In this document: positions 13,774 to 47,631 of the stretch, piece after piece
Position numbering within the stretch: position 1 is the stretch's first letter
How the letters are laid out: each line of letters starts with the position of its first letter
NCBI GenBank assembly: GCA_965140585.1
Contig: OZ223269.1
Location: 672,001-736,000 of the forward strand
DNA from: Spirochaetia bacterium
GTDB taxonomy: Bacteria; Spirochaetota; Spirochaetia; UBA9216
DNA: 64,000 nt
Reading direction: 5' to 3'
Program-made: the position numbers and the translations under genes
Notes under the pieces: generated by a model
Seen by the model: only the letters and a program-made list of their open reading frames with translations
Databases searched by the model: none
Told to the model about the DNA's origin: nothing

Positions 13774-13786
13774 GCCTTTTGAATGA

Positions 13787-16246: not shown

Positions 16247-16255
16247 GAATATCTC

Positions 16256-16741: not shown

Positions 16742-16757
16742 TGAAAACTCCGAAAGA

Positions 16758-16788
16758 GGAACTCCCCTGATTTTCTAAGGGGAGTTCC
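16758..16788 (-). terminator. Hairpin after the SSS gene
   Basis: GGAACTCCCCT...AGGGGAGTTCC with a short T-rich tail. Confidence 0.5.
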
Positions 16789-16805
16789 AGAGATTTTTGA
16801 GCTTT

Positions 16806-18487: not shown

Positions 18488-18638
18488 TTTTCCTCCGAAA
18501 TCTTTTTATTTTTTTGAGTAATGCATAACTCTGATTAAGGTTAAATGTGAAAGAAAAAAACTGTCAATACAGAAAAATCAATAACTAATCCACTTTAGTA
18601 CCACAATATTATAAAATGATGTTAAACTTTATTAGATT

Positions 18639-19529
18639 ATGAAAAAAAATGTCAGTTATCATAAAGAACAGGAATCTTTTGAAAATTTAATCAAACTAAG
18701 ATTCCCTGAAGGAATGGTTTGTGAAAGATGCGGTGGACAAAAATTCTGGGAAAAACCTGTAAAAAGAATTACCGTCTGCAAACATTGCCGGACTGAGAAT
18801 TCACCTCTTGCCAATACTATGCTTCACAGATCGCATATCAGTTTGGAGCACTGGTCCGGTATTGTCAGGCTGATGATAAATTCTTCAGACAGGGTTATAA
18901 CTGCAAGAACCATTTTCAGGGAAATACCTCTGGGATCTTACCGGAGCGCATGGAACGCATTGAGAAAAATCAGGTATGCAATTTCATATCATACAGAGGA
19001 TGAGAGGCTTGAAGGGGAGGTTGAGTTTGATGAGATAATAAAAAGAGGGCAGGGTGAAGATTACCGGAAAGTAAGTATCCTTGGTGCTCTTGAGATGTCC
19101 GGAGAAAAGAGACTGTCTCTAAAAATGGTTAAGAATCCTGATGAAATGAATATCAAGGATTATTTTAAAAAGAATTTCGATAAAAAAGCAGTATTCATAG
19201 TCGATCCTCAAAAGCTGTATTTGAGAAACTGGCTCGAATTAAACCGCTTTAAGCAGAAAAGTTCCATTACCGCATACGGCGGAAAGTTTATGAATATTCA
19301 TGTTGTTTTACAGGATGTTAAATACGGTTTAAGAAACGGGCACCATAATGTTTCTGAACAGTTTCTGCAGGAATATCTGGATGAATATCAGTTTATCTTT
19401 AATTACAATGATAACAGGGAAAAAGCTCAGCAGCTTGTTCTGGGATTTATGATGAATACGCCTATCGAAGGATTTAATAAACGACCTGAAACAAAAAAGA
19501 ACTTTCTTTCAATATTCAGTACAAAATAA
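18639..19529 (+). mobile_element. IS1595-family transposase-like gene, no terminal inverted repeats seen
   Basis: RFPEGMVCERCG...CKHC Zn ribbon, SYRSAWNALRKIR HTH, LEGEVEFDE, HHNVSEQFLQEYLDEYQFIFN. Confidence 0.7.
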
Positions 19530-19534
19530 AGGCA

Positions 19535-19565
19535 GAAAAAAGCTGACCGGGGTTTCCAGTCAGCT
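19535..19565 (-). terminator. Terminator of the preTA operon
   Basis: AGCTGACTGG-AAACC-CCGGTCAGCT followed by a T-run on the minus strand. Confidence 0.7.
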
Positions 19566-19695
19566 CAAATTATAAATAGTAAAATGGATGTTTGTTTAGT
19601 CCGTAGTTATACTGATTCGGGATGTTAACTAATTTTCAGGTAAGAAAGTCGTTAACTCCTCAAACATCAAAGTTTATGAATCAAACTTCTGTTGT

Positions 19696-21003
19696 TTACT
19701 GGTCATACTCCCCGACAACTATTTCGCGTTTACAAGGAGCATTTTCTGTATATACTGCTTCGCTTCCTTTTCCGAACTGATCTTCGGGTTTGAAAACAAC
19801 TTTGCCCGGAGTTATACAGCCGGCAACCGGACATACATGCAGACAGAGATGACAGCCTACACACTTGTCTTCATCAATGGCGACTTTTCTATTTTCCTGA
19901 TCCCAGGTGATCGCCTGATGAGCTCCGTCAAAACAGGATACGTAGCATCTGCCGCAGCTTACACATTTATCGTAATCGATCTGCGGGTAAACCTTGAAAT
20001 CTCTATCGAGTTCTTCGGCAGGTACGATACTTTTAACTGCAAGACCTACGAAGTCATCAATTGATTTAAATCCTTTCTCTTCCATCCAGATTGAAAGACC
20101 GCTTATCATGTCTTCAACAATCCGGAATCCGTACTGCATGACAGATGTTGTGAACTGCAGGTTGGTACATCCAAGAAGAAGGAATTCTGCACAGTCTTCC
20201 CAGGTTTCAATTCCGCCGATTCCGCTGATAGGTATATCTTTAAGAACTTCATCCTGTTTCATCTGGGCAATGAACCGGAGTGCAATTGGTTTTGCAGCTT
20301 TTCCAGAATAGCCTGAGATTGATGATTTTCCGTTAACTACCGGAAGACCTGTTAATTTATCGAGATCAAGTCCGGTGATTGATTTAATAGTATTTATGGC
20401 TGCAATAGCATGTCCGCCTGCTGCGATGGAGGCTCTTGCAGGAATTTCCATCTTTTCGATATTAGGTGTCATCTTAAGCATAACCGGCAGGTTGGTTCCT
20501 TTGAGTGTAGCTTTGGTAAAGCTTTCAATTAGCTCAAGATTTGCACCTACATCAGAACCCATGTTTTCCTGGGTCATCTGAGGACATGAATAGTTACATT
20601 CAATTATATCTGCGCCTGCTTCAGTTACATCCTTGGCAAGTCTTGTCCAGTCGTCCTCATTCATTCCCATTATCGAAACAATAAGACATTTGGTAGGAAA
20701 GTCTTTTTTCAGTTTGCGAAGGAATTCAAGGTTCTCCTCATATGGGTGATCTGAAATCTGTTCCATGTTTTTAAAGCCGACAAATGGTTCACCTTCTTTT
20801 CTGACATGGTCAAAACGAGGAGAACATTCATCAGGAATGTAAGTTCCTATAGTTTTAAAAACAACTCCGCCGCCTCCGGCTTCAAGGAATTTAGCGCACA
20901 TCTCATAGGTGGCGGCTACCGGTGAAGAAGAAAGGAAGAACGGGTTTTCACATTTAAATCCGCAAAAATCAACTGATAAATCTGCATGTTTTCTCTTTAC
21001 CAT
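19696..21003 (-). CDS. preA: NAD-dependent dihydropyrimidine dehydrogenase subunit PreA
   Basis: [24 protein letters not shown], two C-terminal 4Fe-4S motifs (CVSCGRC, CVGCHLC). Confidence 0.93.
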
Positions 21004-21005
21004 GA

Positions 21006-22304
21006 TTACTTTGCCTCCTTTGTGAGATATTTGTCTATGTTTTCAGCCGCAACCTTACCAACAGCTACAGCCTGTACAACTGTTTTTCCGCCGTTTACTA
21101 TATCGCCGCCGGCAAAGATGTATGGAACACTTGTTCGGCAGTCTTTGCTTTCATCTGCAATTATTGTATTTTTAGGACCGAAACTTATGTCTGCAATGTC
21201 CTTTACTGAAGGATCTGGTGCCTGGCCTATGGCAAAAATTACTTTGTCACATTCAAGCTCTATTTTTGATGAATCTCTGAAACCTTCTCCCTTAATACCA
21301 ACAACCTTCCCGTCTTTTCCGATTATCTCGGCCGGTGTAAAACCATAATGCATGTGAACACCGAGCGATTCAACGTAATTCATCTCGATTTTATGCGCAG
21401 GTGCTTCTTCTCTGGTTCTTCTGTAAAGAATCATTACTTTTTCCGCACCTAAAAGCCGTGCTGTAGTGGCACAGTCCATGGCTACATCACCACCGCCGAG
21501 AACTACAACCTTGTTGCCCGGTTCAATATCACCCCCTGACGGTTTTGCTGCACCAAGATATTCTACTGCGTTTGTTACTCCATCAAGCTCAACGCCGGGA
21601 ATATCAAGTGATTTGGGAGCCTGAATACCTGCCCCGATAAAAAAGGCTTTATAACCGTCTGCTTTCAGCTGATCGATAGTTTTGTCTTTACCGATTTTTG
21701 TGTTGCATATGATTTCAACGCCAAGGTCTTTGATAAGCTGTACTTCTTCTTCAACTATATACTGAGGAAGTCTTGCAGGAACTACTCCGTATGTAAGAAC
21801 ACCGCCCGGTATTGCTTTTTCTTCAAAAATAGTTACCCGATAACCTTTTTGTGCAAGTTCTGCGGCACATGTAAGCGATGCCGGTCCGGAACCGATCATG
21901 GCTACTTTGTCCTTTGTAGCATCAACTTTCTCAAGTGCTTCAAATCCGGTAGCTTTTGCGTAATCTGTAGCGAATCTCTGAAGCCGGCCTATCTGAATAG
22001 GTTTGTCGATTCCGGTTCTTGAACATGCTTTTTCACAAAGCACCTCGTACGGACAGACTCTTGCACAGATCCCGCCGAGTACATTGTTTGTTCGAATTAT
22101 CTCTGCTGCACCCTTAAAGTTTCTGAACCTTATAGATCTTATAAAGTCTCCCGGGTTTGTTCCTGCCGGACAATCCTGGGAACATGGTGCGTCAAGACAG
22201 AGAAGACAGCGTGAGGCCTCTTCCATTGCAGTTGCAATGTTAAAAGGGGGCACTTCTTCACACAGATATTGCTTCTGCAAATCCTGTTTGCTGTTATTAG
22301 ACAT
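21006..22304 (-). CDS. preT: Dihydropyrimidine dehydrogenase subunit PreT (GltD-like)
   Basis: [43 protein letters not shown]; adjacent to preA. Confidence 0.9.
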
Positions 22305-26949: not shown

Positions 26950-26987
26950 AAAAAAAGGCTGCACTCTCAACATGCAGCCTTTTTTTT
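26950..26987. terminator. Bidirectional terminator
   Basis: A-run, GGCTGCA...TGCAGCC, T-run between convergent genes. Confidence 0.75.
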
Positions 26988-27883
26988 CAGCAAAGCGATA
27001 CGCCGGCCAATATGGACAGGTACTTGGTTCTTTCACTGTCCGCCCTGGATGTTAGAATAATCGGTGCTGAAGCTCCGGCAATTATGCCGGCCATGTCGCA
27101 GTCGGTGAAATAAGCCATTGTTTTATAGAATACATTAGCCGCTTCTATGTCAGGAAACAGCAGGACATCAGCGTTTCCACCGACTTCTCCGGTTATACCT
27201 TTTACTTCGCAGCTGTGCTTGGATATGGCATTATCGAGTGCGAACGGTCCGTCTATGACGCAGCCTTTTATCTGACCGCGATCGGCCATCTTTGAAAGCA
27301 TAGCTGCATCAAGAGTGCATGGCATGGAGGGGTTAACTTTTTCAACGGCACCTATAACAGCAACCAGAGGTTTTTCAATTCCCAGCGTATGAGCGATTTT
27401 AACGGCGTTTTCGGTTAGAAGCTCTTTTTCCTTAAGCTCAGGTGCGATGTTCATTGCGGCATCGGTGGCAATAAGCAGTTTGTGGTATGACTTTATATCT
27501 ATAATAGCCATATGAGAAAGCATTCCTGAACCAGAGAGTCCGTTTTCACGGTCAAGGACTGCTTTCATAATAACTGATGTTGCGGTTTTTCCCTTCATAA
27601 GGCAGTCTGCTTTACCTGATTTTACAAGTTCAACAGCCTTCTTTGCACAGGCTTTTTCTCCGTCGGCCTCAATAATTTCAAAGGCCTCGATACATATACT
27701 GTTCTGAGACGCTATAGATTTGATTCTTTCCGGATTTCCTACAAGAATAGGTTTCACTATATTCTTTCCGGCCGCAGCAGCAATTGCGGCTAAAGCATCA
27801 TCTTCTTCCGCCATTGCCAGAGCAACGCATTTTGACGGTTTTTTAACTGCATTTTCTTCAAGTGTTTTAAAGTTATAGTTCAT
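26987..27883 (-). CDS. Phosphate butyryltransferase/acyltransferase (Ptb-like)
   Basis: ADCLMKG, TDAAMNIAP, DGPFALDNAIS, APIILTSRADS. Confidence 0.85.
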   Translation of the reverse strand: MNYNFKTLEENAVKKPSKCVALAMAEEDDALAAIAAAAGKNIVKPILVGNPERIKSIASQNSICIEAFEIIEADGEKACAKKAVELVKSGKADCLMKGKTATSVIMKAVLDRENGLSGSGMLSHMAIIDIKSYHKLLIATDAAMNIAPELKEKELLTENAVKIAHTLGIEKPLVAVIGAVEKVNPSMPCTLDAAMLSKMADRGQIKGCVIDGPFALDNAISKHSCEVKGITGEVGGNADVLLFPDIEAANVFYKTMAYFTDCDMAGIIAGASAPIILTSRADSERTKYLSILAGVSLC

Positions 27884-28020
27884 AATATAAACATCATACA
27901 ACGGATTGATGAAATGTAAATAATTTTATGAGTACTATGTCTTCAGATTATTATATATTTGTTTGACTATTTTATTGCTCAGCTGAAAAATCTCTGCTAA
28001 TATGACTGCAACAATCATAT

Positions 28021-28178
28021 TATTGTCCGAGCCTTCTTTCCTGCAGCCGATAGGTATGGAATTTCGGCCGATGAATTTCGTATCAAAGATCTGAGCTATC
28101 TGTGTAGACTGCTTTGAACGTCGTTCAAAAGGGTTGTACCGGAAACAGTACTGCCTTCCGTATTTGTAAAGGAGATAG
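28021..28178 (+). ncRNA. Moco/Tuco riboswitch (MOCO RNA motif)
   Basis: TCCGAGC...GGTATGG...GGC, GGGTTGTACC-GGAAAC-AGTACTGCC, TTCCGTATTTGTAAAGGAG overlapping the RBS of tupA. Confidence 0.8.
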
Positions 28179-28180
28179 TA

Positions 28181-29053
28181 ATGAGAACGAACCCGTCTCT
28201 CGGTATGCCTATAACAGGTGTACGTTCTGTCAAAAATTTCATTCTTATTCTGTTGCTGATTTTATCTGTGAATGCAGTATTTGCAGGCGGTCAGCAGGAA
28301 ACTAAACCCGCTGAGGAAGTCCGGATTAAAATGGCGACAACCACCAGTACAGAAAACTCAGGTCTTCTTGATGTTCTTATACCTGCTTTTACTGAAAAAA
28401 CAGGTATAGCTGTAGATGTAATAGCAGTGGGTACAGGCAAAGCTATTGCACATGGTGAGAACGGAGATGTTGATCTGATCTTTGTTCATGCCCGTTCGAG
28501 GGAAGATTCTTTTGTTGCTGATGGTTACGGCGTGAACCGCAAGGATGTAATGTATAATGACTTTGTAATTATCGGTCCTGAAAACGATCCTGCAGGAATA
28601 AGCTCAGCCGCAACGGCTGCTGAAGCAATGAAACTTATTACCGTTTCAGGGGCTGATTTTGTATCCCGAGGTGATGATTCCGGAACTCATATCAAGGAAA
28701 AAGCGATCTGGGCAGAAGCCGGAATAGCTCCTTCCGGGCAGTGGTATAAGGAGGCAGGTCAGGGAATGGGAACTGTAATAACTATGGCCAATGATATGAA
28801 CGGCTATACTATTTCTGACCGGGCTACTTATCTGGCTATGAAGGATGAAATCGGTCTCAGAGTCAAGTTCGATGGTGACCCGGTACTTTTTAACCCCTAT
28901 GGAATTATTGCTGTAAATCCTGAGAAATATTCTCATGTTAAATATGATGCAGCTATGGAATTCATCAACTATGTAGTTTCAGAAGAAGGTCAGGCTGTTA
29001 TCGGCGGATTTCAGAAAAACGGCGAACAGCTTTTTTATCCGGATGCCAAATAG
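28181..29053 (+). CDS. tupA: Tungstate ABC transporter substrate-binding protein
   Basis: MATTTSTENSGLL (TTTS motif), AVGTGKA, FVSRGDDSGTH, GQGMG. Confidence 0.9.
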   Translation: MRTNPSLGMPITGVRSVKNFILILLLILSVNAVFAGGQQETKPAEEVRIKMATTTSTENSGLLDVLIPAFTEKTGIAVDVIAVGTGKAIAHGENGDVDLIFVHARSREDSFVADGYGVNRKDVMYNDFVIIGPENDPAGISSAATAAEAMKLITVSGADFVSRGDDSGTHIKEKAIWAEAGIAPSGQWYKEAGQGMGTVITMANDMNGYTISDRATYLAMKDEIGLRVKFDGDPVLFNPYGIIAVNPEKYSHVKYDAAMEFINYVVSEEGQAVIGGFQKNGEQLFYPDAK

Positions 29054-36113: not shown

Positions 36114-36875
36114 ATGTTGATGCTGTCAATTAAGGGTGTAAGTAAGCACTTTGGCGGTCTGAAGGCATTGAAGAACGTCAGTTTTGATATTCAGGACGGA
36201 CGTATTCATGGCATTATTGGACCCAACGGTTCCGGTAAAACTACTATGTTTAACTGTATAACCGGACTTTTAGAGGTGACTGCGGGTAATATCTACCTGA
36301 ATGATATTGAGATCACCGGCAAACCTGCGCATGAGATTTCCAATTTAGGTATCAGGCGGACCTTCCAGCAGGGGAAATTAGTTCCGTCTCTTAAAGTAAT
36401 AGAAAACGTAATGAGCGGCGTCTATGATTATCATAAAACTGATATCAAAGATACTTTTTTCAGAATACCGTTCAGACAGTCGAAAGTAGAAAAAGAACTT
36501 CGTAATGAAGCTTATGAGGTTCTTGAAATGCTTAATCTTTCAGAATCTGCCGATAGGTGGGCATCTGATCTTGTATGGGCTGAACGCCAGTTTGTTCAGA
36601 TTGCAAGAGCTCTTGTTTCCAAACCAAAAATTCTGCTTATGGACGAACCTGCCTCAGGTATGGGACCTAAAGAAACAGAACAGGTCGGTGAGCTTATTCA
36701 GAAAATTAAGGAAATGGGAATTACAGTGGTAGTTGTAAGCCATGATATGAAAATGCTTATGAATGTTGCTGAGACGGTCACTGTTCTTAACTTCGGAGAT
36801 AATATATTCGAAGGAACACCTTCTGAAGTACAGAAAGACCAGAGAGTACTGGAGGCATATCTTGGCACAGAATGA
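36114..36875 (+). CDS. LIV-type ABC transporter ATPase (LivG-like)
   Basis: GPNGSGKTT, RTFQ, LMDEPASGM, VLEAYLG. Confidence 0.88.
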   Translation: MLMLSIKGVSKHFGGLKALKNVSFDIQDGRIHGIIGPNGSGKTTMFNCITGLLEVTAGNIYLNDIEITGKPAHEISNLGIRRTFQQGKLVPSLKVIENVMSGVYDYHKTDIKDTFFRIPFRQSKVEKELRNEAYEVLEMLNLSESADRWASDLVWAERQFVQIARALVSKPKILLMDEPASGMGPKETEQVGELIQKIKEMGITVVVVSHDMKMLMNVAETVTVLNFGDNIFEGTPSEVQKDQRVLEAYLGTE

Positions 36876-37578
36876 AAATATACTGAGTATTGAAAACCTT
36901 TCTGTAAATTACGGACATGTAAAAGCACTTAAAAATATTGATCTCGAACTTAAAAAAGGTGAGATAGTAGTTCTTGTCGGTGCCAACGGGGCGGGTAAAA
37001 CTACTATAATGGAAACTGTACTTGGTGCAAATGTTCCTGAGAATGGTAAAATTACCTATAAAAGCAAAGATATCACCAATACATCTGTAGACAAGAATGT
37101 AAGAAGCGGAATGTTCCTGGTTCCTGAAGGGCGGGGAGTTTTTTCATCGATGACTGTTCTGGATAATCTCCTTCTCGGGGCTCATCACAACCTTTCTCAG
37201 TCTGATAAAAAACTTGAGCTTGTCTATGATTCTTTTCCGGTTCTCGGGAACAGGAAAAATCAGGTCGCCGGTACTTTAAGCGGCGGTGAAAGACAGATGC
37301 TTGCTATTGCAAGAGCTTTGATGTCATCACCGGATATGATTATGGTTGATGAACCGTCTATCGGGCTTGCTCCGATTATAGTAAATGATATTTTTGAGAT
37401 TCTTGTAAATCTGAATAAAGAGGGGTATACAATCCTTCTCTCTGAACAGAATGTCTATAAGGCTCTTAAAATTGCACATCGAGGTTATGTTCTTGAAACA
37501 GGAAATATAATCAAGAGCGGAACTTCTGAAGAACTGTTGAACGATCCTGCAGTTAAAGAAGCATATCTTGGAGCATAG
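36862..37578 (+). CDS. LIV-type ABC transporter ATPase (LivF-like)
   Basis: GANGAGKTT, VPEGRGVF, LSGGERQML, DEPSIGLAP. TTG start after GGAGG. Confidence 0.88.
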   Translation: MAQNENILSIENLSVNYGHVKALKNIDLELKKGEIVVLVGANGAGKTTIMETVLGANVPENGKITYKSKDITNTSVDKNVRSGMFLVPEGRGVFSSMTVLDNLLLGAHHNLSQSDKKLELVYDSFPVLGNRKNQVAGTLSGGERQMLAIARALMSSPDMIMVDEPSIGLAPIIVNDIFEILVNLNKEGYTILLSEQNVYKALKIAHRGYVLETGNIIKSGTSEELLNDPAVKEAYLGA

Positions 37579-37581
37579 AGA

Positions 37582-38472
37582 ATGGAAATATTAATAGCAC
37601 AAATATTTAACGGACTTTCGCTTGGAAGCATTTATGTTCTTTTGGTAACAGGATTTAATCTGCTTCTGCTTGTAGCGATGATTATTCACTTTTCTTTTCC
37701 CGTAGTAATTGTTTTTTCAATGTATATATCCTGGGTCGTGCTGGGATTAACAGGAAATAATATACCGCTCGGTGTTCTCGGCGGAATTGCTTCAGCGATT
37801 GCGGTTAACGCACTCACTGCACCGATGTTTCAGCATATTATGAAAAAACGCGGAAGTGTTGATATAAATGCAACCATGGTAATTTCTATGGGTATGGGAA
37901 TGATTATTACTGATATACTTTCCCACACTTTTAACCAGGGTTTTCCTATTGCTTTTCCTGATGCACTGACCGGAAATGATAAAGGAGCACTTATAAGTGT
38001 AGGTCTTATCAGTATATCAAGAGGTCAGGTTCTTACCCTGATTGTCGGCGTTCTTTTTGTAGCCTTTCTTTTCTGGCTGTTATATAAAACCAGAACCGGG
38101 CGTGCATTCAGAGCCATAGCTGAAGACCCGAACGGAGCAAAACTGGTAGGTATTCCGCTGTTGAAAACCGGATTCTTAAGTTATGCACTTACAGGGATTC
38201 TGGGCGGAGTTACTGCAGTACTTATGGCTATTCTGCTTGGTTCTGCATCTGCAGGACTTGGTGATTCTCTTGGACATAAGGTGCTTGCTGTTTCAATTAT
38301 TGCAGGTCTTGGTAATCTGACGGGAGGACTGATCATCGGATTACTTCTAGGTGTATTGGAAGCCATTATTCAGGGGTACCTTGCCGGTTCCTGGTCCAAC
38401 GCAATCGCTTTTATAATTATGCTTGTTGTTATTTTGGCTAAACCGAAAGGCGTATTCGGAAGCAAGCTATAG
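37582..38472 (+). CDS. LIV-type ABC permease (LivH-like)
   Basis: NGLSLGSIYVL, TRTGRAFRAIAED, KPKGVFG. Confidence 0.85.
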   Translation: MEILIAQIFNGLSLGSIYVLLVTGFNLLLLVAMIIHFSFPVVIVFSMYISWVVLGLTGNNIPLGVLGGIASAIAVNALTAPMFQHIMKKRGSVDINATMVISMGMGMIITDILSHTFNQGFPIAFPDALTGNDKGALISVGLISISRGQVLTLIVGVLFVAFLFWLLYKTRTGRAFRAIAEDPNGAKLVGIPLLKTGFLSYALTGILGGVTAVLMAILLGSASAGLGDSLGHKVLAVSIIAGLGNLTGGLIIGLLLGVLEAIIQGYLAGSWSNAIAFIIMLVVILAKPKGVFGSKL

Positions 38473-38490
38473 GAAGTCAGGAGGAGTACT

Positions 38491-39369
38491 GTGTCTTTAC
38501 CTTTATATTATTTTCTGGCAATAACCGCCATCTATATACTAATGAGCTGGTCCGTCTATATCCCGTACAGGGTTGGACAGCTTCATTTTATGACAGTTGC
38601 TAATATGGCAATATCAGCATATTTTTCAGCTTTAATGGCTATCAATTTTGATTGGCCTTTCATTGTAGTTTTTATCGTAGGAACTTTGCTTGGTGCATTA
38701 ATCGGGTTTCTGGTTTCCGTAGCGATAGGAGATGCTCCCTGCTTTGCTGTTGTTATTGTAGGCTTCACTTTTATCTATCTCACAAAAACTATAATTGAAA
38801 ATGTTGAAGCATTTGGAGGTCCTCTTGGAATCTTCAGTATACCGAAGATTCTTCAGACTTCAGCATCAAATAGAACATTTCTTATTATTTTCATATATGC
38901 CATGGTTGTAATTACAGGCTTTCTAATTCACCGCTTTGATAATTCAAGACTTGGCAGAGCTGCTTCTGCAATATTTATCGACAGAGAACTTGCAGTATCC
39001 TTCGGTGTTGATGTTAAGAAGATGGGTATGTTCCTTCAGACATGGGCTAGCGCACTCGGCGGAATGTCCGGTGTTCTGTATGCTTTCATTATGAGAAGTA
39101 TTTCACCAAACCATTTTACATTCCATATCGTCGGTGTATGTATGACAATGCTTTTTGTCGGCGGGTATACCACTCAGTGGGGCGCTTTGCTTGCAGCTCC
39201 GCTTCTATGGGGATTTCCGTTAATACTTCCGGATATTGTTGAATCATGGAATATCGTAATCTATGGTATACTGCTCATAGTTGTTCTTGTTATAAAGCCT
39301 GAAGGTGTTATAACAAGGCAGATGATTGAAAAAATTGTGAATGTATTCAAAAAGCCGAAAAAAGCCTGA
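38491..39369 (+). CDS. LIV-type ABC permease (LivM-like)
   Basis: SRLGRA, MLFVGG, KPEGVI; GTG start with RBS. Confidence 0.85.
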   Translation: MSLPLYYFLAITAIYILMSWSVYIPYRVGQLHFMTVANMAISAYFSALMAINFDWPFIVVFIVGTLLGALIGFLVSVAIGDAPCFAVVIVGFTFIYLTKTIIENVEAFGGPLGIFSIPKILQTSASNRTFLIIFIYAMVVITGFLIHRFDNSRLGRAASAIFIDRELAVSFGVDVKKMGMFLQTWASALGGMSGVLYAFIMRSISPNHFTFHIVGVCMTMLFVGGYTTQWGALLAAPLLWGFPLILPDIVESWNIVIYGILLIVVLVIKPEGVITRQMIEKIVNVFKKPKKA

Positions 39370-39461
39370 GGGAATATTTTTAAACTGTTTTATATTTGAA
39401 AATATCCGACATTTATAAATTGTAATAAACGCGTATGCGTTTAGAATATTAGGAGGAAAAA

Positions 39462-40652
39462 ATGAAAAAGATTTTAACAGTCTTAGTTCTGCTGCTTCTC
39501 TCCATGTCTTTCGTTTATGCAAGCGGAAGTCAGGAAGCAGGCGCTTCTGAAAGCGGTGAGGTAGTTGTCGATGAATGGGAAATCCCTTTCCTTAACTGTC
39601 TGACCGGACCTATTGCAAGTATCGGTGAATACCTGCAGTGGGGTGCTGAATTCGCAGCAGAAGAAATCAATGCTGCAGGCGGTATTGCCGGAAAACCTGT
39701 AAAGGTTGTTGGTATTGATACTGCTATGAGCCCTGAAAAGGGAACTGTTGAAATGTCAAAGCTTGTTGACAGTGCTCTTGTAGTTATGGGTCCTGTACCC
39801 GAACCTGTAATTATGGCTGCTGTACCAATCGCAGCTGATGAGGGACTTTACAGCTTTACAGCTACAACTTCCTACGAATATGCCGCTGAGTATTTTCCAT
39901 GGGCAATTTCATGGTTTGCTCCAACAGAAGAAAGGCTTGCACCGATTATTACTGCATGGGCAAAGAAAACCGGTGCTAAAAATGTTGTTCAGTTTGTAGA
40001 AAACTACGGCGCATGGCCCGGCATGGCAAAAGCTCATGTAAAGGGAGTTAAGGACGCTGGCGCAAATATCCTTGAAGATGTAGATGTACCATCAGATGCA
40101 GTATCTTTTGGTCCGCTTATCGTTAAAGCTCTTGCACAGGAACCTGACGGTATAATTTTTGCATGTAATGCAGAAAAAGTAGCTAAAATTATCATCGAAC
40201 TCAAGAACAGAGGCTGGGAAGATATGAGTAAAATACTTGTATTCTCAAGTGCTGATGATGCTGCTCTTTACACAACAGGCGGCGATAAGATCAATGGTAT
40301 CATGATTTATAACTACAGCGATCCAAGTCTTGATACTCCAAGATGGAATACTTTCAGACAGAGTTTTAAGGACGATCATGACGGTATAGAGCCCTTCAGT
40401 CTTTCACCCAACTACTACGATGCTGTTTATATGATCAAAAGAGCAATCGAAGAAACCGGTGTGACTGGTGATCCTTCAAAACTTGCAGAAGAAAGAACTT
40501 TAATCAGAGATTACTGTAATGATATTCAGAACTTTGACGGTCTTCAGTACAGCTGGTCAAATAAGGGTGGATATCCTGCAGACAAGCCCCTTTTCCTCTT
40601 TGAAATCAAAGGCGGAGAGAAAGTACTTGTTGATAAAATTACAGCTCAGTAA
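39462..40652 (+). CDS. LIV-type ABC substrate-binding protein
   Basis: Signal peptide, LTGPIASIG, AAEEINAAGGIAGKPV, YDAVYMI. Confidence 0.88.
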   Translation: MKKILTVLVLLLLSMSFVYASGSQEAGASESGEVVVDEWEIPFLNCLTGPIASIGEYLQWGAEFAAEEINAAGGIAGKPVKVVGIDTAMSPEKGTVEMSKLVDSALVVMGPVPEPVIMAAVPIAADEGLYSFTATTSYEYAAEYFPWAISWFAPTEERLAPIITAWAKKTGAKNVVQFVENYGAWPGMAKAHVKGVKDAGANILEDVDVPSDAVSFGPLIVKALAQEPDGIIFACNAEKVAKIIIELKNRGWEDMSKILVFSSADDAALYTTGGDKINGIMIYNYSDPSLDTPRWNTFRQSFKDDHDGIEPFSLSPNYYDAVYMIKRAIEETGVTGDPSKLAEERTLIRDYCNDIQNFDGLQYSWSNKGGYPADKPLFLFEIKGGEKVLVDKITAQ

Positions 40653-40669
40653 ATCTTAATCAGGTTTAT

Positions 40670-40719
40670 AAAAAACCGCAGACCGAACTGACTAAAGTTC
40701 AATGTCTGCGGTTTTTTTT
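40670..40719. terminator. Bidirectional terminator between the ABC operon and panE
   Basis: A-run, CCGCAGAC...GTCTGCGG, T-run. Confidence 0.75.
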
Positions 40720-40786
40720 ATGCTGATTTAATATTTAAATCAATTAGGCAATTTCAAAACTAACATAGTTTTGCAAGAAGCTCAAT

Positions 40787-41704
40787 TTATCTTTTAAGGT
40801 CATAGGTTTTTACAAGGGCTCCAATTACTCGGTTAGCCGGGGTCTCAATTCCAAGCTCCTGCCCCTTCTTGACGATGGCATTATTTATAAAATCTATTTC
40901 CGTGCGGCTTCCCCTGTCAAAATCCTGAAGCATTGATGACCTGTTTGCTCCGGTCTTTTCAGAGACTGAATAAACAGTTTCAAGAGGATTCTCATAGGTA
41001 AGCTCTATTCCTGCTGCTTTTGCAACTGCCACAGCTTCGTTAACCAGCTCACTCATCAACCCCTTGGTTGTTTCGTAATCGAGCAGTTCTCCATTCTTAA
41101 GCCCGGTTAATGCAGTTAATGCATTGATACCGACATTGATTACCAACTTACTCCAGACCAGTCCTGCAATATCATCTTCAAGCATAATTTCGAATCCGGC
41201 TTTTGAAAGCTCTTTGGAAAAGGCTTCAAGCTTTGAGTTATCCCCGTTTGACATACACAGGTGGGTAGGGCCGTTTCCTGCGTGTTTGATATGTCCGGGA
41301 CCTGCAAATGTAGCACCCTGAGATGTAACTCCCGCCGCAGTGTTTGATGCTCCGAAAACCTCTCTTATAAGATCCTCATTGCCTATTCCGTTCTGGAGGG
41401 TGACTACTACTGTTGAATCTGAAGCATGCTTTTTGAAAGATTCTGCAACAGCCTTGGTTGCTGTTGATTTTACAAAAATGATCATAATATCAGAGTCTTT
41501 AACATCTTCAGGGTTATCAGAGGCTTTGACTTTGATAAACTCGCTGTCTCCGGTTGCAAGCGTCTCTATTCGTAAGCCGTTTTCATTTACTGCATTCACA
41601 TGTGCTAAATTTATGTCATATAAAACAACTTCATTTCCTACCGCTGCAAGCTTTCCCCCGAACAGCGAACCCATTGCTCCTGAACCAATAATTGATATTT
41701 TCAT
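40787..41704 (-). CDS. panE: 2-dehydropantoate 2-reductase
   Basis: GSGAMG, LQNGIG, WSKLVINVGINALTAL, NRSSMLQD, RTEIDFIN. Confidence 0.88.
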   Translation of the reverse strand: MKISIIGSGAMGSLFGGKLAAVGNEVVLYDINLAHVNAVNENGLRIETLATGDSEFIKVKASDNPEDVKDSDIMIIFVKSTATKAVAESFKKHASDSTVVVTLQNGIGNEDLIREVFGASNTAAGVTSQGATFAGPGHIKHAGNGPTHLCMSNGDNSKLEAFSKELSKAGFEIMLEDDIAGLVWSKLVINVGINALTALTGLKNGELLDYETTKGLMSELVNEAVAVAKAAGIELTYENPLETVYSVSEKTGANRSSMLQDFDRGSRTEIDFINNAIVKKGQELGIETPANRVIGALVKTYDLKR

Positions 41705-41705
41705 T

Positions 41706-42662
41706 TTATTCTCCTGCTAATCCCGGTATTCCGAATATGGTTTTTGCAGCTTTTACACCTTCAATAACTGCAACTGCCATTACTTCGGCAGCCATACTGC
41801 CGATTGCGGTCAAATCTGCTTCTATATCTCCATTTGAAAGACAGAAAATACTGTCTCCGTCATGCATGGTATGTATTGGGTTTATAGTTCTAGCATAGCC
41901 GTCATGAGCCATCTGAGCAACTTTTGCAGCCTGAGGTTTAGTCAGTTTTGCGTTAGTTGCAATGACACCTATGGTTGTGTTTGATTTTATCGGATTAATA
42001 CCTGTTGATACCTGTTCTGCCAGCAGTTTTGCAGTTCCTGGAAATTCTCCGGGTTTACCCGATCTGGTTCCTGCAATTATCTGACCGGTGGTATTGTCTA
42101 TAACATCTCCAAAACAGTTTACAGCAACTATTGCACCGACAACGATATCACCAATCTTCATGCTTGCAGTTCCAAGTCCACCCTTCATGCAGAAATCGAT
42201 ACCTTTGGCTTTTCCAAGGGTTGCCCCTGTTCCTGCTCCAATGTTCCCCATTCTTGATTCATTTGAATTAGCCGCCAGACAGGCTTCATATCCCATCTTT
42301 TGATCCGGACGGGCTTTATAATCGGCTACCGGCAGATCAAAAAGGACAGCTCCGGGAACTATTGGTACCAGTCCTATTCCGATATCAAGACCTCTGTTAT
42401 TTTCTTCACTCCACTTCATGACACCGTCTGCGCCAGCGAGGCCGTAGGCACTGCCGCCGCCAAGATAGACAGCATGGACTGTCTGTATATAATTTACCGG
42501 ATTGAGGCAGTCGGTCTCTCTTGTTCCGGGCGCTCCGCCGGCAACATCAACACCGCATACTGCCTCTGTTTCAGGCAGAATAACTGTACAACCTGTCCCG
42601 CCTGTTAAATCCTGTGCATGACCGACTTTTATGCCGGGTACATCGCATATACTTCCGCTCAT
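41706..42662 (-). CDS. P1/S58 family DmpA/ThnT-like Ntn amidohydrolase
   Basis: GGAPGTRETD, GGSAYGL, VPIVPGAVLFDL, GAGTGAT, N-TTIGVIATNA autocleavage site, HTMHDGD. Confidence 0.88.
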   Translation of the reverse strand: MSGSICDVPGIKVGHAQDLTGGTGCTVILPETEAVCGVDVAGGAPGTRETDCLNPVNYIQTVHAVYLGGGSAYGLAGADGVMKWSEENNRGLDIGIGLVPIVPGAVLFDLPVADYKARPDQKMGYEACLAANSNESRMGNIGAGTGATLGKAKGIDFCMKGGLGTASMKIGDIVVGAIVAVNCFGDVIDNTTGQIIAGTRSGKPGEFPGTAKLLAEQVSTGINPIKSNTTIGVIATNAKLTKPQAAKVAQMAHDGYARTINPIHTMHDGDSIFCLSNGDIEADLTAIGSMAAEVMAVAVIEGVKAAKTIFGIPGLAGE

Positions 42663-42675
42663 TATAACTCCATAA

Positions 42676-43878
42676 TTATTCTAAATTTTCTAATACTTCT
42701 TTAGTTTCTGATGCCATCATCCATTCTTCATTAGTGGGGATGACAAGTACTTTTACCTTTGATTGACTGCTGCTTATAACTGATTCAACACCGGCTGCTG
42801 AATCATTAAGTTCTGAATCAATTTCGATACCGAGAACTTCCAGGCCGCTGCATATTTTTTCTCTTATAACTGCAGAGTTTTCTCCAATTCCGGCAGTGAA
42901 GATAAGTGCATCCATTCTGCCATCAAGAGTACAGGCAAGCTTACCTATATATTTTCTGATAGAACGAACAAATATTTCAAGAGCAAGTACACTTCTTTCC
43001 TGTCCTTCATCTGCAGCTTTAAGAATATCACGTAAATCAGGAGAGACTCCGCTTATTCCGGCAAGACCGGATTTCTTATAAATTATATCCTTAACCTCGG
43101 CTGCCGAAAAACCAGCTTCAGTTATCAGGTGTAAAACTGCATCAGGATCCACATCCCCGGCACGTGTCCCCATTGGAACCCCGCATGCTGTGCCTAAACC
43201 GAGCGAAGTGTCCACAGCTCTGCATCCAATAGATGACGTAAGCGATACACCGCCTCCGATATGTGCGCTTACAGTATGCAGTTTCTCTTTAGGCAGCCCG
43301 AGCATTTCTGCAGCTCTTAGATTGATGTATTTATGCGAGGCTCCGTGAAATCCGAATTTCCGAAGGCCGTATTTCTCATAGTATTCATAGCCCAGTCCGA
43401 ATGAAAATGCCGCCTGGCTCATATCAGAATAATAGGCGGTATCAAAACTTGCACACTGGGGAAGCTCGGGGAGCAGGGCAGTTATGGCCTGTACTCCGAG
43501 AAGTCCCGGAGGATTATGAAGGGGTGCAAGATTGAGATTGTCTTCCACTACAGAAACAACTTCAGGAGTAATAAGCATTGGCCTGGTCAGCTTATCTCCG
43601 CCATGAACGAGCCGATGGCCGACAGCATCAATTTCAGAAATATCTTTTAGTATGCCTGTATCATCGGAGGTAAGCAGATTCAATACTGTCTCAAGTCCCT
43701 GTTTGTGATTTTCAACATTAATATTAAATTCCTTCTTAAAAACCGAAGTTTCAATCTTGATAACGCTGTTGTTTCCAACCCTGTCAACCAGCCCTTTACA
43801 GATGGTCTGCTCATTATCCATTTTGAATATCTGGAATTTTATTGAAGTGCTCCCGCTGTTAATTATAAGAATTTTCAA
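42676..43878 (-). CDS. Acetate-kinase family acyl kinase with atypical pocket residues
   Basis: INSGSTSIKFQ, GHRLVHGG, LAPLHN, FHGASH, MGTRAGDVDP, FTAGIGENS, PTNEE. Confidence 0.85.
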   Translation of the reverse strand: MKILIINSGSTSIKFQIFKMDNEQTICKGLVDRVGNNSVIKIETSVFKKEFNINVENHKQGLETVLNLLTSDDTGILKDISEIDAVGHRLVHGGDKLTRPMLITPEVVSVVEDNLNLAPLHNPPGLLGVQAITALLPELPQCASFDTAYYSDMSQAAFSFGLGYEYYEKYGLRKFGFHGASHKYINLRAAEMLGLPKEKLHTVSAHIGGGVSLTSSIGCRAVDTSLGLGTACGVPMGTRAGDVDPDAVLHLITEAGFSAAEVKDIIYKKSGLAGISGVSPDLRDILKAADEGQERSVLALEIFVRSIRKYIGKLACTLDGRMDALIFTAGIGENSAVIREKICSGLEVLGIEIDSELNDSAAGVESVISSSQSKVKVLVIPTNEEWMMASETKEVLENLE

Positions 43879-44030
43879 ATAATGCCTCCTGTTTGAAAAA
43901 AACTCAAAATCACATTATAATTAAGTATTAGTTAAATTTCGTTATCTTTTCCTTGTTAAAAAATACTATTATAGGTTATATTATTATACAAGGTAAATAT
44001 AGGTTAAATTATACACTTTAGGAGTTTAAT

Positions 44031-44897
44031 ATGAGTTCACATCCGGAAGCAACAAAAAAATTGCTCGCTGCTGATCTTCAGAAGATGAAAGACGACGGCG
44101 AAAAGATATCAATGATCACTGCTTATAATTATCCACAGGCAATGGTTGTTGATGAAGCAGGAATCGACATTATCCTGGTGGGTGATTCACTGGGCATGGT
44201 TGAACTTGGCTACAAAGACACTGTTCCTGTAACCATGGATGAAATGCTGATGCATACCAAGGCTGTTATGAGGGCTGTAAATAGAGCTCACGTAGTAGGT
44301 GACCTTCCTTTTATGTCATACAATATCTCAAATGAACAGGCTGTAACCAATGCAGGTATCCTTTATAAGGATGGGCTTTGCGATTCTATCAAGTTCGAAG
44401 GCGGCCAGGATTTTGCACCTACAGCTGCCGCAATAACCAAGGCTGGTATCCCGGTTTTTGCACATATCGGACTTACTCCTCAGACAGCTGCCACAATGGG
44501 CGGTTTCAAGGTTCAGGGTAAATCACTTGATGCTGCAAAATCAGTGCTTGATGATGCTCTTGCAATGCAGGACGCAGGTGCTTTTGCAATCATTCTTGAA
44601 GCTATTCCCCAGCAGCTTGCTGCAATAATTACAGAACAGCTTACTATTCCTACAGTTGGTATCGGAGCAGGTCCTTCATGTGCAGGACAGGTTCTTGTTT
44701 ATCATGACCTTCTCGGACTCTTTAAGAGATTTACTCCGAAGTTTGTAAAGGTTTATGCTGATATGTATACACCTCAGGTTAATGCTGTTAAGGAATTTAT
44801 CGGTGAAGTTAAGGATGTAAAATTTCCTACAAACGACCACAGTTTCAACATGAAAGCCGAAGCAGTTGAAGAACTGAAAAAGGCACTGGGGCTTTAA
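44031..44897 (+). CDS. panB: 3-methyl-2-oxobutanoate hydroxymethyltransferase
   Basis: ILVGDSLGM, DLPFMSY, HIGLTPQ, GGFKVQG, GIGAG, GQVLVYHDLLG. Confidence 0.93.
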   Translation: MSSHPEATKKLLAADLQKMKDDGEKISMITAYNYPQAMVVDEAGIDIILVGDSLGMVELGYKDTVPVTMDEMLMHTKAVMRAVNRAHVVGDLPFMSYNISNEQAVTNAGILYKDGLCDSIKFEGGQDFAPTAAAITKAGIPVFAHIGLTPQTAATMGGFKVQGKSLDAAKSVLDDALAMQDAGAFAIILEAIPQQLAAIITEQLTIPTVGIGAGPSCAGQVLVYHDLLGLFKRFTPKFVKVYADMYTPQVNAVKEFIGEVKDVKFPTNDHSFNMKAEAVEELKKALGL

Positions 44898-44898
44898 T

Positions 44899-45804
44899 AT
44901 GTCAGCTGTATTGATTAAGGGAACAGATATACGGGAAGAGATTCTCGCTGAATTAAGGGCAGAAACTGCAGAGCTTAAAGAGAAGTACGGAAAAGTTCCG
45001 GGTCTCGTTACTATTCTTATTGGTGAAAACCCGGCTTCCATCTCCTATGTAACCCTTAAGATCAAGACAGCACAGAGTCTCGGTTATAATGAAATTCAGG
45101 ACACACGGTCTGAAGATATAACCGAGGCTGAATTACTTGAATTAATTGATAAATATAATAAGGATGAAAATATTCACGGAATCCTTGTTCAGCTACCTCT
45201 TCCAAAACATATAGATGAAAAGAAGGTTCTGAACGCTATCGATCCTGATAAGGATGTCGATGGATTTCATCCTGTAAATGTCGGACGGCTTATGATTGGC
45301 GGTGATGAGGTGAAATATCCGCCATGTACTCCTGCAGCAATTCAGGAGATGATTATCCGTTCCGGTGTTGAAACTAAAGGAGCTGAAGTTGTAGTAGTAG
45401 GGCGCTCCAATATTGTTGGAAAGCCGATAGCCAATATGATGCTGCAAAAAGGTGCAGGGGCTAATTCTACTGTGACAGTTGTGCATACCGGTACCAAGAA
45501 CCTGGCTGAACACTGCCTGAGGGCAGATATTCTGATAGTTGCAGCTGGAGTTCCTGGACTGGTTAAGCCGCAATGGATTAAAAAAGGAGCATGTGTTATT
45601 GATGTTGGAGTAAACAGAGTAGGTGAAAAAATCAGTGAAAAAACCGGAAAGAAAATAGCAGTTCTTAAGGGTGACGTTGATTTCGAAGAAGCCTCTCAGA
45701 TTGCCGGATATATTACCCCCGTACCCGGCGGTGTAGGTCCCATGACAATAACAATGCTTATGAAGAATACTTTAAAATCATTCAAATACGCATTGAGGTT
45801 ATAA
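44899..45804 (+). CDS. folD: Methylene-THF dehydrogenase/cyclohydrolase
   Basis: [41 protein letters not shown]. Confidence 0.95.
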
Positions 45805-45806
45805 TT

Positions 45807-47570
45807 ATGAAACTTGATCCGACTAAGATGAAGGACTGGGAGATTGCAGAAGCAGCTGAAAAGGATATGAAGACAGTCTATCAGCTTGCTGAAGAACTGA
45901 ATCTGGATAAAATGGAGATTCTTCCGTATGGTCACTTCCTTGGTAAACTGGATTACAACGCTATTCTTGAGCGACTGAAAGATAAACCGGATGGAAAATA
46001 CATCGAAGTTACGGCAATAAATCCTACTCCGCTTGGCGAAGGAAAGACAACTACAACCATGGGACTGGTTGAAGGACTTGGAAAGATTGGTAAATCTGTC
46101 TGCGGAGCCATCAGGCAGCCTTCAGGCGGACCTACATTCAACATTAAGGGTTCAGCCGCTGGAGGCGGACTTGCACAATGTGTACCTCTTACCGAGTTTA
46201 GTCTCGGACTTACCGGCGATATAGACGCCATTACTAATGCACACAACCTGGCTATGGTTGCTCTTACCAGCCGAATTCAGCATGAATTCAACTACGGCGA
46301 TGATGTGCTTGATAAAAAGAATCTAAAAAGACTTGATATAGATCCAAGAAATCCTGCAATAGGATGGGCTATAGATTTTTCAGCCCAGGCACTCCGGGAA
46401 ATAATAATAGGACTCGGCGGAAAGATGGACGGATTTATGATGAAAAGCGGTTTTCAGATAACTGTTTCATCAGAAATTATGGCCATACTTGCTGTTGCCA
46501 AAGATCTTAAGGATATGCGGGAACGCATAGGTAAGATGATTATCGGTTACAACAAGAAAGGTGAAGCTGTTACTGCTGATGATCTTGAAGTAGGGGGAGC
46601 CATGACTGCCCTGATGGCACGGGCAATCAACCCGAACATCATGCAGACTATCGAAGGTCAGCCTGTACTTGTTCATGCAGGCCCTTTTGCAAATATTGCG
46701 ATCGGCCAGTCATCAATTATAGCTGACCGTGTGGGACTTAAACTCTGTGATTACCATGTAACAGAGAGCGGTTTCGGTGCAGATATCGGTTTTGAGAAGT
46801 TCTGGAACCTTAAATGCCGGTTCTCAGGGCTTGTTCCGAACTGTTCAGTGATTGTGTGTACAGTAAGAGCTTTAAAGATGCACGGAGGAGGTCCAAAGGT
46901 TGTTCCGGGCAAACCTCTCGATAAGGCATATACTGAAGAGAATATTGAACTGGTTGAAAAAGGACTTGAAAACCTTCTTGCCCATATTGCAACCGTCAGA
47001 AAGAGCGGTGTACCTGCAGTTGTATGTATAAACCACTTTTATACTGATACTGATAAGGAAATTGAGGTCATCAGGGAAGCCTGTAAGAAAGCCGGTGCCA
47101 GGGTTGCCTTATCAAAACACTGGGAAAAAGGCGGTGAAGGCGCGGTTGAACTTGCAAATGCAGTTGTCGAAGCCTGTGAAGAAAAGCCGGATTTTAAATT
47201 CCTTTATGAAGATTCTACTCCTCTTAAGGATAGAATTGAGCTTATTGCTACCCAGGTTTACGGCGCCGATGGTGTGAGCTACAGTGCTGAAGCTGCTGCC
47301 AAGCTGGAAAAGATTCAGAATGACAGTGCCTTGAACGGTCTGGGAACCTGTATGGTTAAGACCCATCTGTCATTGTCGCACGACCCGACTCTGAAAGGCC
47401 GCCCGAAAGGCTGGACGCTCCCGATAAGTGATATACTTGTATACCAGGGAGCAGGGTTTATTGTCCCTGTTGCCGGAGGTATTAAGCTTATGCCCGGTAC
47501 TGCCTCGGATCCTGCATTCAGGCAGATCGATGTCGATACAGATACCGGACGTGTAAAAGGCCTTTTTTAA
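45807..47570 (+). CDS. fhs: Formate-tetrahydrofolate ligase
   Basis: [53 protein letters not shown]. Confidence 0.95.
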
Positions 47571-47596: not shown

Positions 47597-47631
47597 ATCA
47601 GCCGGAGCAATGAACCGCTCCGGCTTTTTTT
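47597..47631 (+). repeat. 35-bp direct repeat copy 1 (intrinsic terminator of fhs)
   Basis: ATCAGCCGGAGCAATGAACCGCTCCGGCTTTTTTT, identical to 49870-49904. Confidence 0.9.

Follow-up and report, generated by a model that had tools for sequence, protein, structure and literature searches.

Aerobic Pseudomonas degrades pantothenate (vitamin B5) with pantothenase (EC 3.5.1.22), pantoate 4-dehydrogenase and dimethylmalate dehydrogenase, along a route whose first step splits pantothenate into pantoate and beta-alanine and whose last product is 2-oxoisovalerate; as known from the biochemistry of the 1960s, pantoate is oxidized at C4 and the extra carbon leaves as CO2. Here we describe a gene cluster at positions 36114–47570 of a 64,000-nucleotide window (G000:C6:672001-736000) from a spirochaete genome of 10 contigs (G000, 98.49% complete), which, as judged from sequence, probably encodes a not yet described route for breaking down B5-type compounds for energy, and whose gene set recurs in other anaerobes. 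The proposed route would likewise lead from pantothenate to 2-oxoisovalerate, but it would use PanE and PanB in reverse, the carbon being kept as a tetrahydrofolate (THF)-bound one-carbon (C1) unit able to yield ATP. We see about an even chance that the cluster represents, in this genome, a conserved module by which anaerobes catabolize, and possibly salvage, pantothenate-type amides, with PanE and PanB reversed and ATP formed through Fhs and an acyl kinase. A preliminary description of the window, made from its letters alone, had proposed either a catabolic or a biosynthetic use of these genes and knew of no description of either; the open-access full-text literature indeed yielded no gene-level account of them, and neither genes that break down pantothenate nor ThnT-like pantetheinases of bacteria were met with there. 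According to the available excerpt of PMC10393543 (2023), the protein behind the pantothenase activity is not known, and the excerpt of PMC12570885 mentions only host pantetheinases.

Families were assigned by comparing Pfam and NCBIfam profile scores with the curated cut-offs. The eleven open reading frames of the cluster lie at exactly the coordinates given in the preliminary description, and its gene calls hold by these scores. On the reverse strand, the gene of an acetate/propionate-kinase-family kinase (42676–43878, with a TTG start and a GGAGG ribosome-binding site; TIGR00016, 419 bits, cut-off 293) is followed after 13 bp by that of an S58/P1 (DmpA/ThnT/NylC-type) self-processing amidase, predicted to be cytoplasmic (41706–42662; PF03576), and after 1 bp more by panE (40787–41704), encoding a PanE-family 2-dehydropantoate 2-reductase (TIGR00745, 285 bits, cut-off 141; PF02558, PF08546). 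On the forward strand, panB (44031–44897; ketopantoate hydroxymethyltransferase; TIGR00222, 312 bits, cut-off 208; NF001452, 366 bits, cut-off 272), folD (44899–45804; NF010765, 560 bits, cut-off 501) and fhs (45807–47570; formate-tetrahydrofolate ligase; NF010032, 1100 bits, cut-off 938) are separated by 1 and 2 bp, respectively, the operon being closed by a terminator-like hairpin (47600–47625, forward strand) with a 9-bp stem, 7 GC pairs and a following T run. The AT-rich region of 152 bp between the kinase gene and panB (43879–44030) putatively holds both promoters; no Rfam element or riboswitch reaches the gathering score in it, and promoter-like hexamers occur on both of its strands, their count over the whole stretch (30) showing no excess over the shuffle expectation (28.7). 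The two tight divergent operons sharing one intergenic region, as described earlier, are thus reproduced in position, spacing and family, and so is the LIV-type ABC importer that converges on panE, its binding-protein gene ending 134 bp away. This importer comprises, all on the forward strand, an ATPase of the branched-chain/HAAT type (36114–36875; PF00005 and PF12399, the branched-chain C-terminal motif), a second ATPase (36763–37578; PF00005, PF12399) whose listed frame shares 113 bp with the first, which makes a later true start probable, two BPD_transp_2 permeases (PF02653; 37582–38472, 104 bits, and 38491–39369, 73 bits) and a periplasmic substrate-binding protein (Peripla_BP_6, PF13458, 150 bits; 39462–40652), for which pantothenate or pantetheine is the proposed ligand.

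PanB and PanE pass the NCBIfam family cut-offs, as in the canonical panBCDE pathway; however, G000 lacks PanC, PanD and CoaBC, and the two genes are joined to an importer and to hydrolases. The absence of panC and panD from the window, recorded in the preliminary description, extends to the whole genome. PF02569 (PanC) finds no match in G000, with 9 of 14 control genomes positive, PanD is found by Pfam neither in the genome nor in the window, and tblastn of G000 with the PanC, PanD and PanG of Dehalococcoidia gave no match; the archaeal phosphopantothenate synthetase PPS (PF02006) was not found either. PF04127 (CoaB) is without a match in G000, against 14 of 14 control genomes, as is tblastn with the CoaBC of Chloroflexi. 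The sole match to PF02441 (Flavoprotein) has UbiD-like and UbiA-like genes within a few kb and therefore looks like UbiX, not CoaC; it was rejected as a stand-alone CoaC and treated as UbiX-like. An intact type III pantothenate kinase (CoaX), CoaD and CoaE are kept. By its predicted gene content, G000 cannot make vitamin B5 or coenzyme A (CoA) from scratch. As to second copies, which the preliminary description had considered for both panB and panE, panB has none (profile search and tblastn), and panE has two paralogues elsewhere in the genome (27% identity each). The PanE of the cluster passes the subfamily model TIGR00745, and the best equivalog-level model, NF005091, scores 203 bits, below its cut-off of 252; PanE-family members acting on other 2-oxo acids are known. 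One copy each of folD and fhs is present in G000 (tblastn), so that the genes of the cluster are also the housekeeping genes of this genome rather than dedicated copies.

The amidase matches PF03576 with 165 bits (cut-off 23.9) over profile positions 2–302 of 307, that is, near full length; no signal peptide was found on it, and NCBIfam holds no model for it. Its best solved relatives are the nylon-6,6 hydrolase 9cxr (E 5e-67) and ThnT (E 1e-52; phmmer, residues 4–279), the latter match bearing out the relationship to ThnT drawn in the preliminary description; among the solved structures DmpA and BapA do not reach E 0.001. Residues N228|T229, in the sequence SNTTIG, align with the NTTIG self-cleavage site of 9cxr and 9yys and form the predicted processing site. 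The NylC-type hydrolases of nylon oligomers and nylon-6,6 (9cxr, 3axg) thus share fold family and NTT site and provide the best structural match, but nylon is man-made, the entry titles give no natural role and the names hold no link to pantothenate. ThnT, from thienamycin biosynthesis in Streptomyces cattleya (PDB 3tm1, 3s3u, 4ihe), is a pantetheine hydrolase. It shares PF03576 and the N|T self-cleavage motif with the window amidase, the gene context of which points to pantothenoyl or pantoyl amides; it differs in having about 50 extra N-terminal residues (the alignment starts at chain residue 54) and a role in an antibiotic pathway, whereas the subfamily of the window amidase appears to belong to primary metabolism. 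This subfamily is very large, with 7,938 of 8,000 scored clusters at E <= 1e-40 to the window amidase, and its members bear in public databases only the names "P1 family peptidase" or "L-aminopeptidase/D-esterase-like". A paralogue in G000 (G000:C7:84950-86095; about 50% identity over 280 residues) has a signal-peptide-like N-terminus and the longest branch in a FastTree phylogeny of 105 S58 sequences, a quick method with an arbitrary root. In the same tree the copies from the window, from Atribacteria and from metagenomes form one clade of 31 (local support 96), 28 of which are linked to pan genes, apart from the S58 sequences linked to coaBC, coaX, ECF transporters and AI-2E-family transporters and from those of Dehalococcoidia.

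Conservation of the linkage was analysed from two independent seeds. With the amidase as seed, 80 loci from many phyla were kept from a genome-contig collection (50–70% identity) and screened by tblastn with the proteins of the window and of the loci themselves, families being confirmed by Pfam. Pan genes, coaBC or coaX occur in 29 of these loci. Pan genes are found in 14, in at least five gene orders, within metagenome-assembled genomes (MAGs) labelled Spirochaetales, Atribacteria, Bacillota, Dehalococcoidia and Anaerolineae. Spirochaetales have panB divergent from (ack) S58 panE; Atribacteria have the beta/gamma subunits of 2-oxoisovalerate:ferredoxin oxidoreductase (VOR), four ABC genes, the binding protein, an M20 hydrolase, S58, panE and panB, with an aminotransferase added in L006; Bacillota have panB, panE, (M20, VOR alpha/beta/gamma), OPT and S58; in Anaerolineae, panE and panB are divergent from S58; and in Dehalococcoidia, S58 is followed by a DUF2520 reductase (panG), panD, panB and panC with overlapping stop and start codons. 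VOR genes adjoin the module in L004, L005, L006, L069 and L099. The same partners in different orders speak for selection on the linkage, and the association of the amidase with pan genes is not due to chance. A NUDIX gene beside the Atribacteria operon was considered as a CoA pyrophosphatase and dropped, since by NCBIfam it falls into the ADP-ribose/NudE type.

With the binding protein alone as seed, 80 loci were obtained from metagenome contigs, many of them short. They contain S58 (24 loci), panB (20), an M20 deacylase of the ArgE/DapE type (18), panE (17), a class-III aminotransferase (5), folD (4), fhs (4), the kinase (2) and VOR (1), and a core gene is present in 11 of the 15 loci whose flanks each extend for at least 3 kb; panC, panD, panG, coaBC and coaX occur in none of the 80. 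The commonest layout is panE-M20-ABC-binding protein followed on the other strand by S58, which diverges from panB, and in L099 panB, VOR alpha/beta/gamma and folD run in one direction. Orthologues of the ABC ATPase (55–81% identity) precede the binding protein in the metagenome loci and in the sister genus, and the binding protein of the window is 64% identical to the one inside the Atribacteria operon. Solved structures are only distantly related to it (LIV or urea binders, E >= 1e-13), too distant for a ligand to be assigned from them. The linkage first seen in the window recurs, whichever of the two proteins serves as seed.

Within the same genus, G259 (near-complete, 4 contigs) carries an identical cluster with 95–100% protein identity. 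In G231, of another genus of the same family, the ABC and binding-protein genes are followed by M20-panE-S58-ack on the reverse strand, divergent from panB-folD, with fhs nearby and inverted. No M20 orthologue was found in G000 (best match 29% identity), and its occurrence in the operon of the sister genus suggests that M20 is ancestral to the operon and missing only in the genus of the window. The phylogenetic profile against PanC, proposed in the preliminary description, was drawn from 30 genomes reached through the S58 loci. PanC is absent from all nine genomes with a tight cluster outside Dehalococcoidia (5 Spirochaetales, 2 Atribacteria, 1 Bacillota, 1 Anaerolineae) and from both close relatives, G259 and G231, just as no canonical panC lies elsewhere in G000; it is present in three of four Dehalococcoidia, in the same operon as S58, in one Anaerovoracaceae genome with S58 6 kb from panB/panE, and, among the 16 genomes in which S58 lacks linkage to pan genes, in 11. 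Of the 30 genomes, 24 have CoaB; the six without it are the five Spirochaetales MAGs and the Anaerolineae genome. CoaX is absent from the same six genomes and interrupted by TAA and TGA stops in G231 (G231:C45:26934-27448), whereas G000, G259, the Atribacteria and the Bacillota genome have an intact copy. Pantothenate kinases were searched for as types III (CoaX) and I, and none of type I scored above cut-off in any of 12 genomes.

On these grounds the catabolic proposal of the preliminary description is favoured: importer, amidase, panE and panB travel together across phyla, often with M20, VOR, folD, fhs and an aminotransferase, and never with panC in the binding-protein loci. The substrates and the direction of flux, which we infer from this company, would be as follows. 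Pantothenate and/or pantetheine would be taken up by the ABC importer with its binding protein. The cytoplasmic S58 enzyme, a proposed pantetheine and/or pantothenate amidohydrolase, would cut the cysteamine amide of pantothenoyl-cysteamine, and M20, whose ArgE/DapE-type family acts on N-acyl amino acids with a free carboxylate, would in most versions of the module cut N-pantoyl-beta-alanine, which S58 may also do in the M20-less genus of the window. PanE would then oxidize pantoate to ketopantoate, PanB, acting as a retro-aldolase, would split this into 2-oxoisovalerate and 5,10-methylene-THF, and FolD and Fhs would convert the C1 unit to formate and ATP. A VOR encoded elsewhere in G000, 57–62% identical to the module-linked VORs, would turn 2-oxoisovalerate into isobutyryl-CoA, from which a phosphotransacylase and the variant kinase would give isobutyrate and ATP; beta-alanine would pass to the aminotransferase and aldehyde dehydrogenase encoded further upstream in the window. 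Run in this direction, the route would yield one ATP each from Fhs and the acyl kinase. Several features fit it. An importer-like, binding-protein-dependent transporter with two amide hydrolases and, in most modules, no ATP-using enzyme has a catabolic or salvage shape. The recurrent partners agree with reverse flux, as VOR would act on 2-oxoisovalerate, FolD and Fhs on methylene-THF, and the class-III aminotransferase on beta-alanine. Moreover, in genomes with no kinase for pantothenate or no cysteine-adding step, making pantothenate from pantoate would be pointless, and on thermodynamic reasoning its formation without ATP is not feasible. The anticorrelation with PanC is also expected under catabolism, since PanC working alongside a pantothenate hydrolase would waste ATP in a cycle.

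The kinase keeps in alignment all six equivalents of N7, R91, D148, H180, R241 and E384 of the Methanosarcina thermophila acetate kinase (1g99), which we take to be its catalytic residues. Relative to 1g99, FTPLEG of the substrate pocket, which holds P232, is changed to LGTACG, GNG of PHOSPHATE-2 to GGG, and DTAFHQT to DTAYYSD. GT(x)CG is found in seven of seven module-linked kinases and TPLEG in the three other ackA-family paralogues of G000 (30–40% identity), a genome that also has butyrate-kinase-like genes; no NCBIfam equivalog model is reached by the kinase, which is limited to one spirochaete sub-lineage of the module. A new substrate specificity is suggested by these changes, and we infer that the enzyme would serve as the acyl-phosphate kinase of the isobutyrate branch. 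A Ptb-like phosphate acetyl/butyryl transferase (PF01515) is encoded in the window at 26987–27901 on the reverse strand and could serve the conversion of isobutyryl-CoA to isobutyryl-phosphate. A phosphorolysis of the amide by S58, with ATP made in a subsequent step, was considered and rejected on thermodynamic reasoning.

A number of points weigh against this catabolic route. VOR, FolD, Fhs, PanB, PanE and the aminotransferase are reversible on paper and could equally feed the synthesis of pantoate and beta-alanine, so that the direction cannot be read from the gene content alone; reduction is the strongly preferred direction of PanE, and its oxidation of pantoate would need a pull from later steps. 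Free pantothenate is scarce in nature. With M20 missing in the genus of the window, the pantoyl-beta-alanine bond is without an assigned hydrolase unless S58 acts on it. The same genus keeps an intact CoaX without a CoaBC to use its product, for which the model gives no explanation, and the S58 gene of Dehalococcoidia heads a complete panG-panD-panB-panC operon, which fits salvage and not catabolism. The kinase motif, in the form GTMCG, also occurs in two spirochaete genomes without the module, beside dnaA, nrdD and thioredoxin-like genes, an uninformative neighbourhood; GT(x)CG may therefore be a lineage variant rather than a sign of new specificity, and the motif is weakened as proof of a new substrate. 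Finally, most of the locus-derived genomes are MAGs of unspecified completeness, in which each single absence is weak evidence; the same cannot be said of the pattern of absences in the six spirochaete genomes, of which three are at least 98% complete.

The S58 subfamily also occurs beside genes that use pantothenate. CoaBC is encoded in 13 of the 80 amidase loci, in 12 of these immediately upstream of S58 and on the same strand, coaX immediately downstream of S58 in two, parts of ECF transporters in seven and an AI-2E-family transporter in 12. The order EtfB-EtfA-CoaBC-S58 runs on one strand in 12 Chloroflexi loci (L026, L033, L037, L041, L043, L044, L049, L051, L053, L054, L057 and L078; at about 6600–9000), coaX directly follows S58 in two Bacillota loci (L050, L061), and S58 lies within ECF-transporter clusters with ATPases, EcfT and an S component (PF12822) in L013, L014, L023, L018, L046, L067 and L077. 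M20 is also present in L013, L014, L023, L046 and L067, and an M3 oligopeptidase in L013, L014 and L023 (Brevibacillus). This company of coaBC, coaX, pan operons and vitamin-type ECF transporters ties the subfamily to pantothenate and CoA compounds and makes pantothenoyl or pantoyl amides its likely substrates. It is also what would be expected if the whole system served salvage only, S58 being a pantetheinase that converts imported pantetheine to pantothenate for CoaX and CoaBC, type III kinases refusing pantetheine, with panB and panE ordinary or relict biosynthetic genes, the product of which would be used or exported by some other path. The Dehalococcoidia operon and the module-bearing Atribacteria and Bacillota MAGs, which have CoaX and CoaBC and no PanC, point the same way. 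In Bacillus subtilis, according to PMC11487621, only CoaA and not CoaX supports growth on pantethine, which would explain a hydrolase from pantetheine to pantothenate beside coaX or coaBC. However, salvage alone leaves unexplained both the persistence of panB and panE in genomes without PanC, pantothenate kinase and CoaB and the joining of M20, VOR, folD, fhs and an aminotransferase to the module, and the module-linked S58 enzymes form a clade of their own, apart from the coaBC-, coaX- and ECF-linked ones; as an account of the cluster we thus hold it to be unlikely.

The other proposal of the preliminary description, a biosynthesis independent of PanC, fares less well. In this scheme the kinase would make pantoyl phosphate, S58 would act as an ArgJ-like acyl transferase passing the pantoyl group to beta-alanine, and FolD and Fhs would supply the C1 unit for PanB. 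The lack of PanC wherever the tight cluster occurs, the position of the kinase gene in one operon with S58 and its altered pocket motif beside three canonical paralogues would all agree with it, the DmpA/ArgJ fold supports acyl transfer, and the archaeal bypass by pantoate kinase and PPS offers a precedent for a kinase and a second enzyme replacing PanC. In contrast to that bypass, PPS is absent here, the kinase belongs to the acetate-kinase family, which phosphorylates carboxylates, and not to the GHMP family, and the remaining steps of the CoA pathway are missing. CoaB is absent from the same spirochaete genomes, and the flavoprotein of G000 looks like UbiX rather than CoaC; with CoaX absent in all five related MAGs and broken in the sister genus, and no type I kinase above cut-off, pantothenate would be a dead end. 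Furthermore, the kinase is missing from most modules (it is present in 2 of 80 binding-protein loci and in none of the Atribacteria, Bacillota and Anaerolineae versions), the kinase-less modules carry an M20 hydrolase and an importer with no ATP-using enzyme, and the kinase motif is present in genomes without the module. The replacement of PanC by kinase and amidase is accordingly disfavoured, and we consider it improbable; reverse hydrolysis without ATP was rejected as a substitute for PanC on equilibrium reasoning.

We attach a similarly small likelihood to a generic catabolism of peptides or branched-chain amino acids, in which the importer would take up valine or peptides, S58 and M20 would be ordinary aminopeptidases, and panB and panE would be present through the shared 2-oxoisovalerate. 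The family names of the transporter, the database names of the amidases, OPT or oligopeptide-permease genes near S58 in L019, L024, L069 and L011, and the M3 oligopeptidase after S58-M20 in Brevibacillus can be read in this sense. But the binding protein is only remotely like the solved LIV binders, pan, coaBC or coaX genes in more than a third of the S58 loci are not expected of a general peptidase, and the nearest characterized relative of S58 by natural function is a pantetheine hydrolase. Least probable of all is that the kinase and the ThnT-like Ntn enzyme form an acyl-phosphate-dependent amide synthase in spirochaetes lacking PanC, CoaB and CoaC, joining pantoyl or pantothenoyl phosphate to beta-alanine or cysteamine, which, if true, would be chemistry new to vitamin B5 and CoA synthesis, replacing the missing ligases.

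The relation of panB to panC was further viewed in a sample of 200 genomes of the phylum with at least 90% completeness, of which 129 have PanB, 140 PanC and 164 CoaB. According to the hit lists, 10 of the 129 panB-bearing genomes are without panC; among the 119 genomes with both, panB lies next to panC in at least 24, in contrast to the binding-protein loci, none of which holds panC. Loss of CoaB is common in the class of the window, as in family f2, where it is found in 3 of 19 genomes. The S58 orthologue is no general marker of PanC loss: the spirochaete families f3, f7, f16, f13 and f35, with panB and without panC (some also without coaB), have no S58, and the model leaves them unexplained. 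Among these, f3 genomes (99–100% complete; L082-L084, at about 8270–10900) have panB, then Flavoprotein and DFP (CoaC/CoaB) frames and panD, with PanC not detectable, and are a separate case of a missing PanC, with CoaBC. In an f7 genome without PanC or PanD, a pyridoxal-phosphate (PLP)-dependent decarboxylase (PF00282; L085, 1965–3110, reverse strand) adjoins panB and is a possible alternative source of beta-alanine. In two f16 genomes, in which panB is present and PanC and CoaB were not found, a conserved protein of 415/427 residues is encoded directly downstream of panB (L087, 6837–8084, and L088, 6720–8003, both on the reverse strand); it matches no Pfam or NCBIfam model, the identity between its two copies is 55%, and it offers a further lead on panB without panC. 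Family f22 shows the opposite combination, PanC without PanB (CoaB in 30 of 31 genomes, PanC in 20, and a single weak panB match, E 9e-4), and there an S58 orthologue (47–51% identity) is present in 27 of 31 genomes, and in 27 of the 29 of the main genus g29.

Upstream of the cluster, positions 5722–22304 of the window encode a Na+-decarboxylase beta subunit, a carboxyltransferase, a xanthine/uracil permease, an aldehyde dehydrogenase, a class-III aminotransferase and a PreT/PreA-like dihydropyrimidine dehydrogenase, which together look like a predicted pathway of uracil and beta-alanine catabolism with energy conservation; neither a dihydropyrimidinase nor a ureidopropionase was identified in this region. 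A sodium:solute symporter within it is the best PanF-like match in G000, below cut-off, and an IS1595/ISXO2-like transposase (18639–19529, forward strand) lies there as well. A Moco (molybdenum/tungsten cofactor) riboswitch (59.8 bits) at 28013–28190 (forward strand) closely precedes the gene of a PBP_like_2 binding protein and ABC genes, which are followed by two MoeA genes, MoaA, MoaC, MOSC and MogA-like genes up to 35904.

Taken as a whole, these results connect a large part of the S58/P1 family that has had no annotation with the metabolism of pantothenate and CoA, and a module for uptake and hydrolysis can include panB and panE. If the catabolic route is correct, these would be the first genes for the breakdown of pantothenate or pantetheine, providing candidates for the orphan pantothenase (EC 3.5.1.22) and for a widespread bacterial pantetheinase, and a function would be given to a very large family now labelled only as peptidases. 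PanB and PanE, textbook biosynthetic enzymes, would operate in reverse within a fermentation that gains energy, the C1 unit being conserved as ATP by way of Fhs, and the prediction of vitamin requirements from genomes would call for caution, since panB and panE together would not imply B5 production. Such a route would also bear on the recycling of CoA from dead cells in anoxic sediments and guts.

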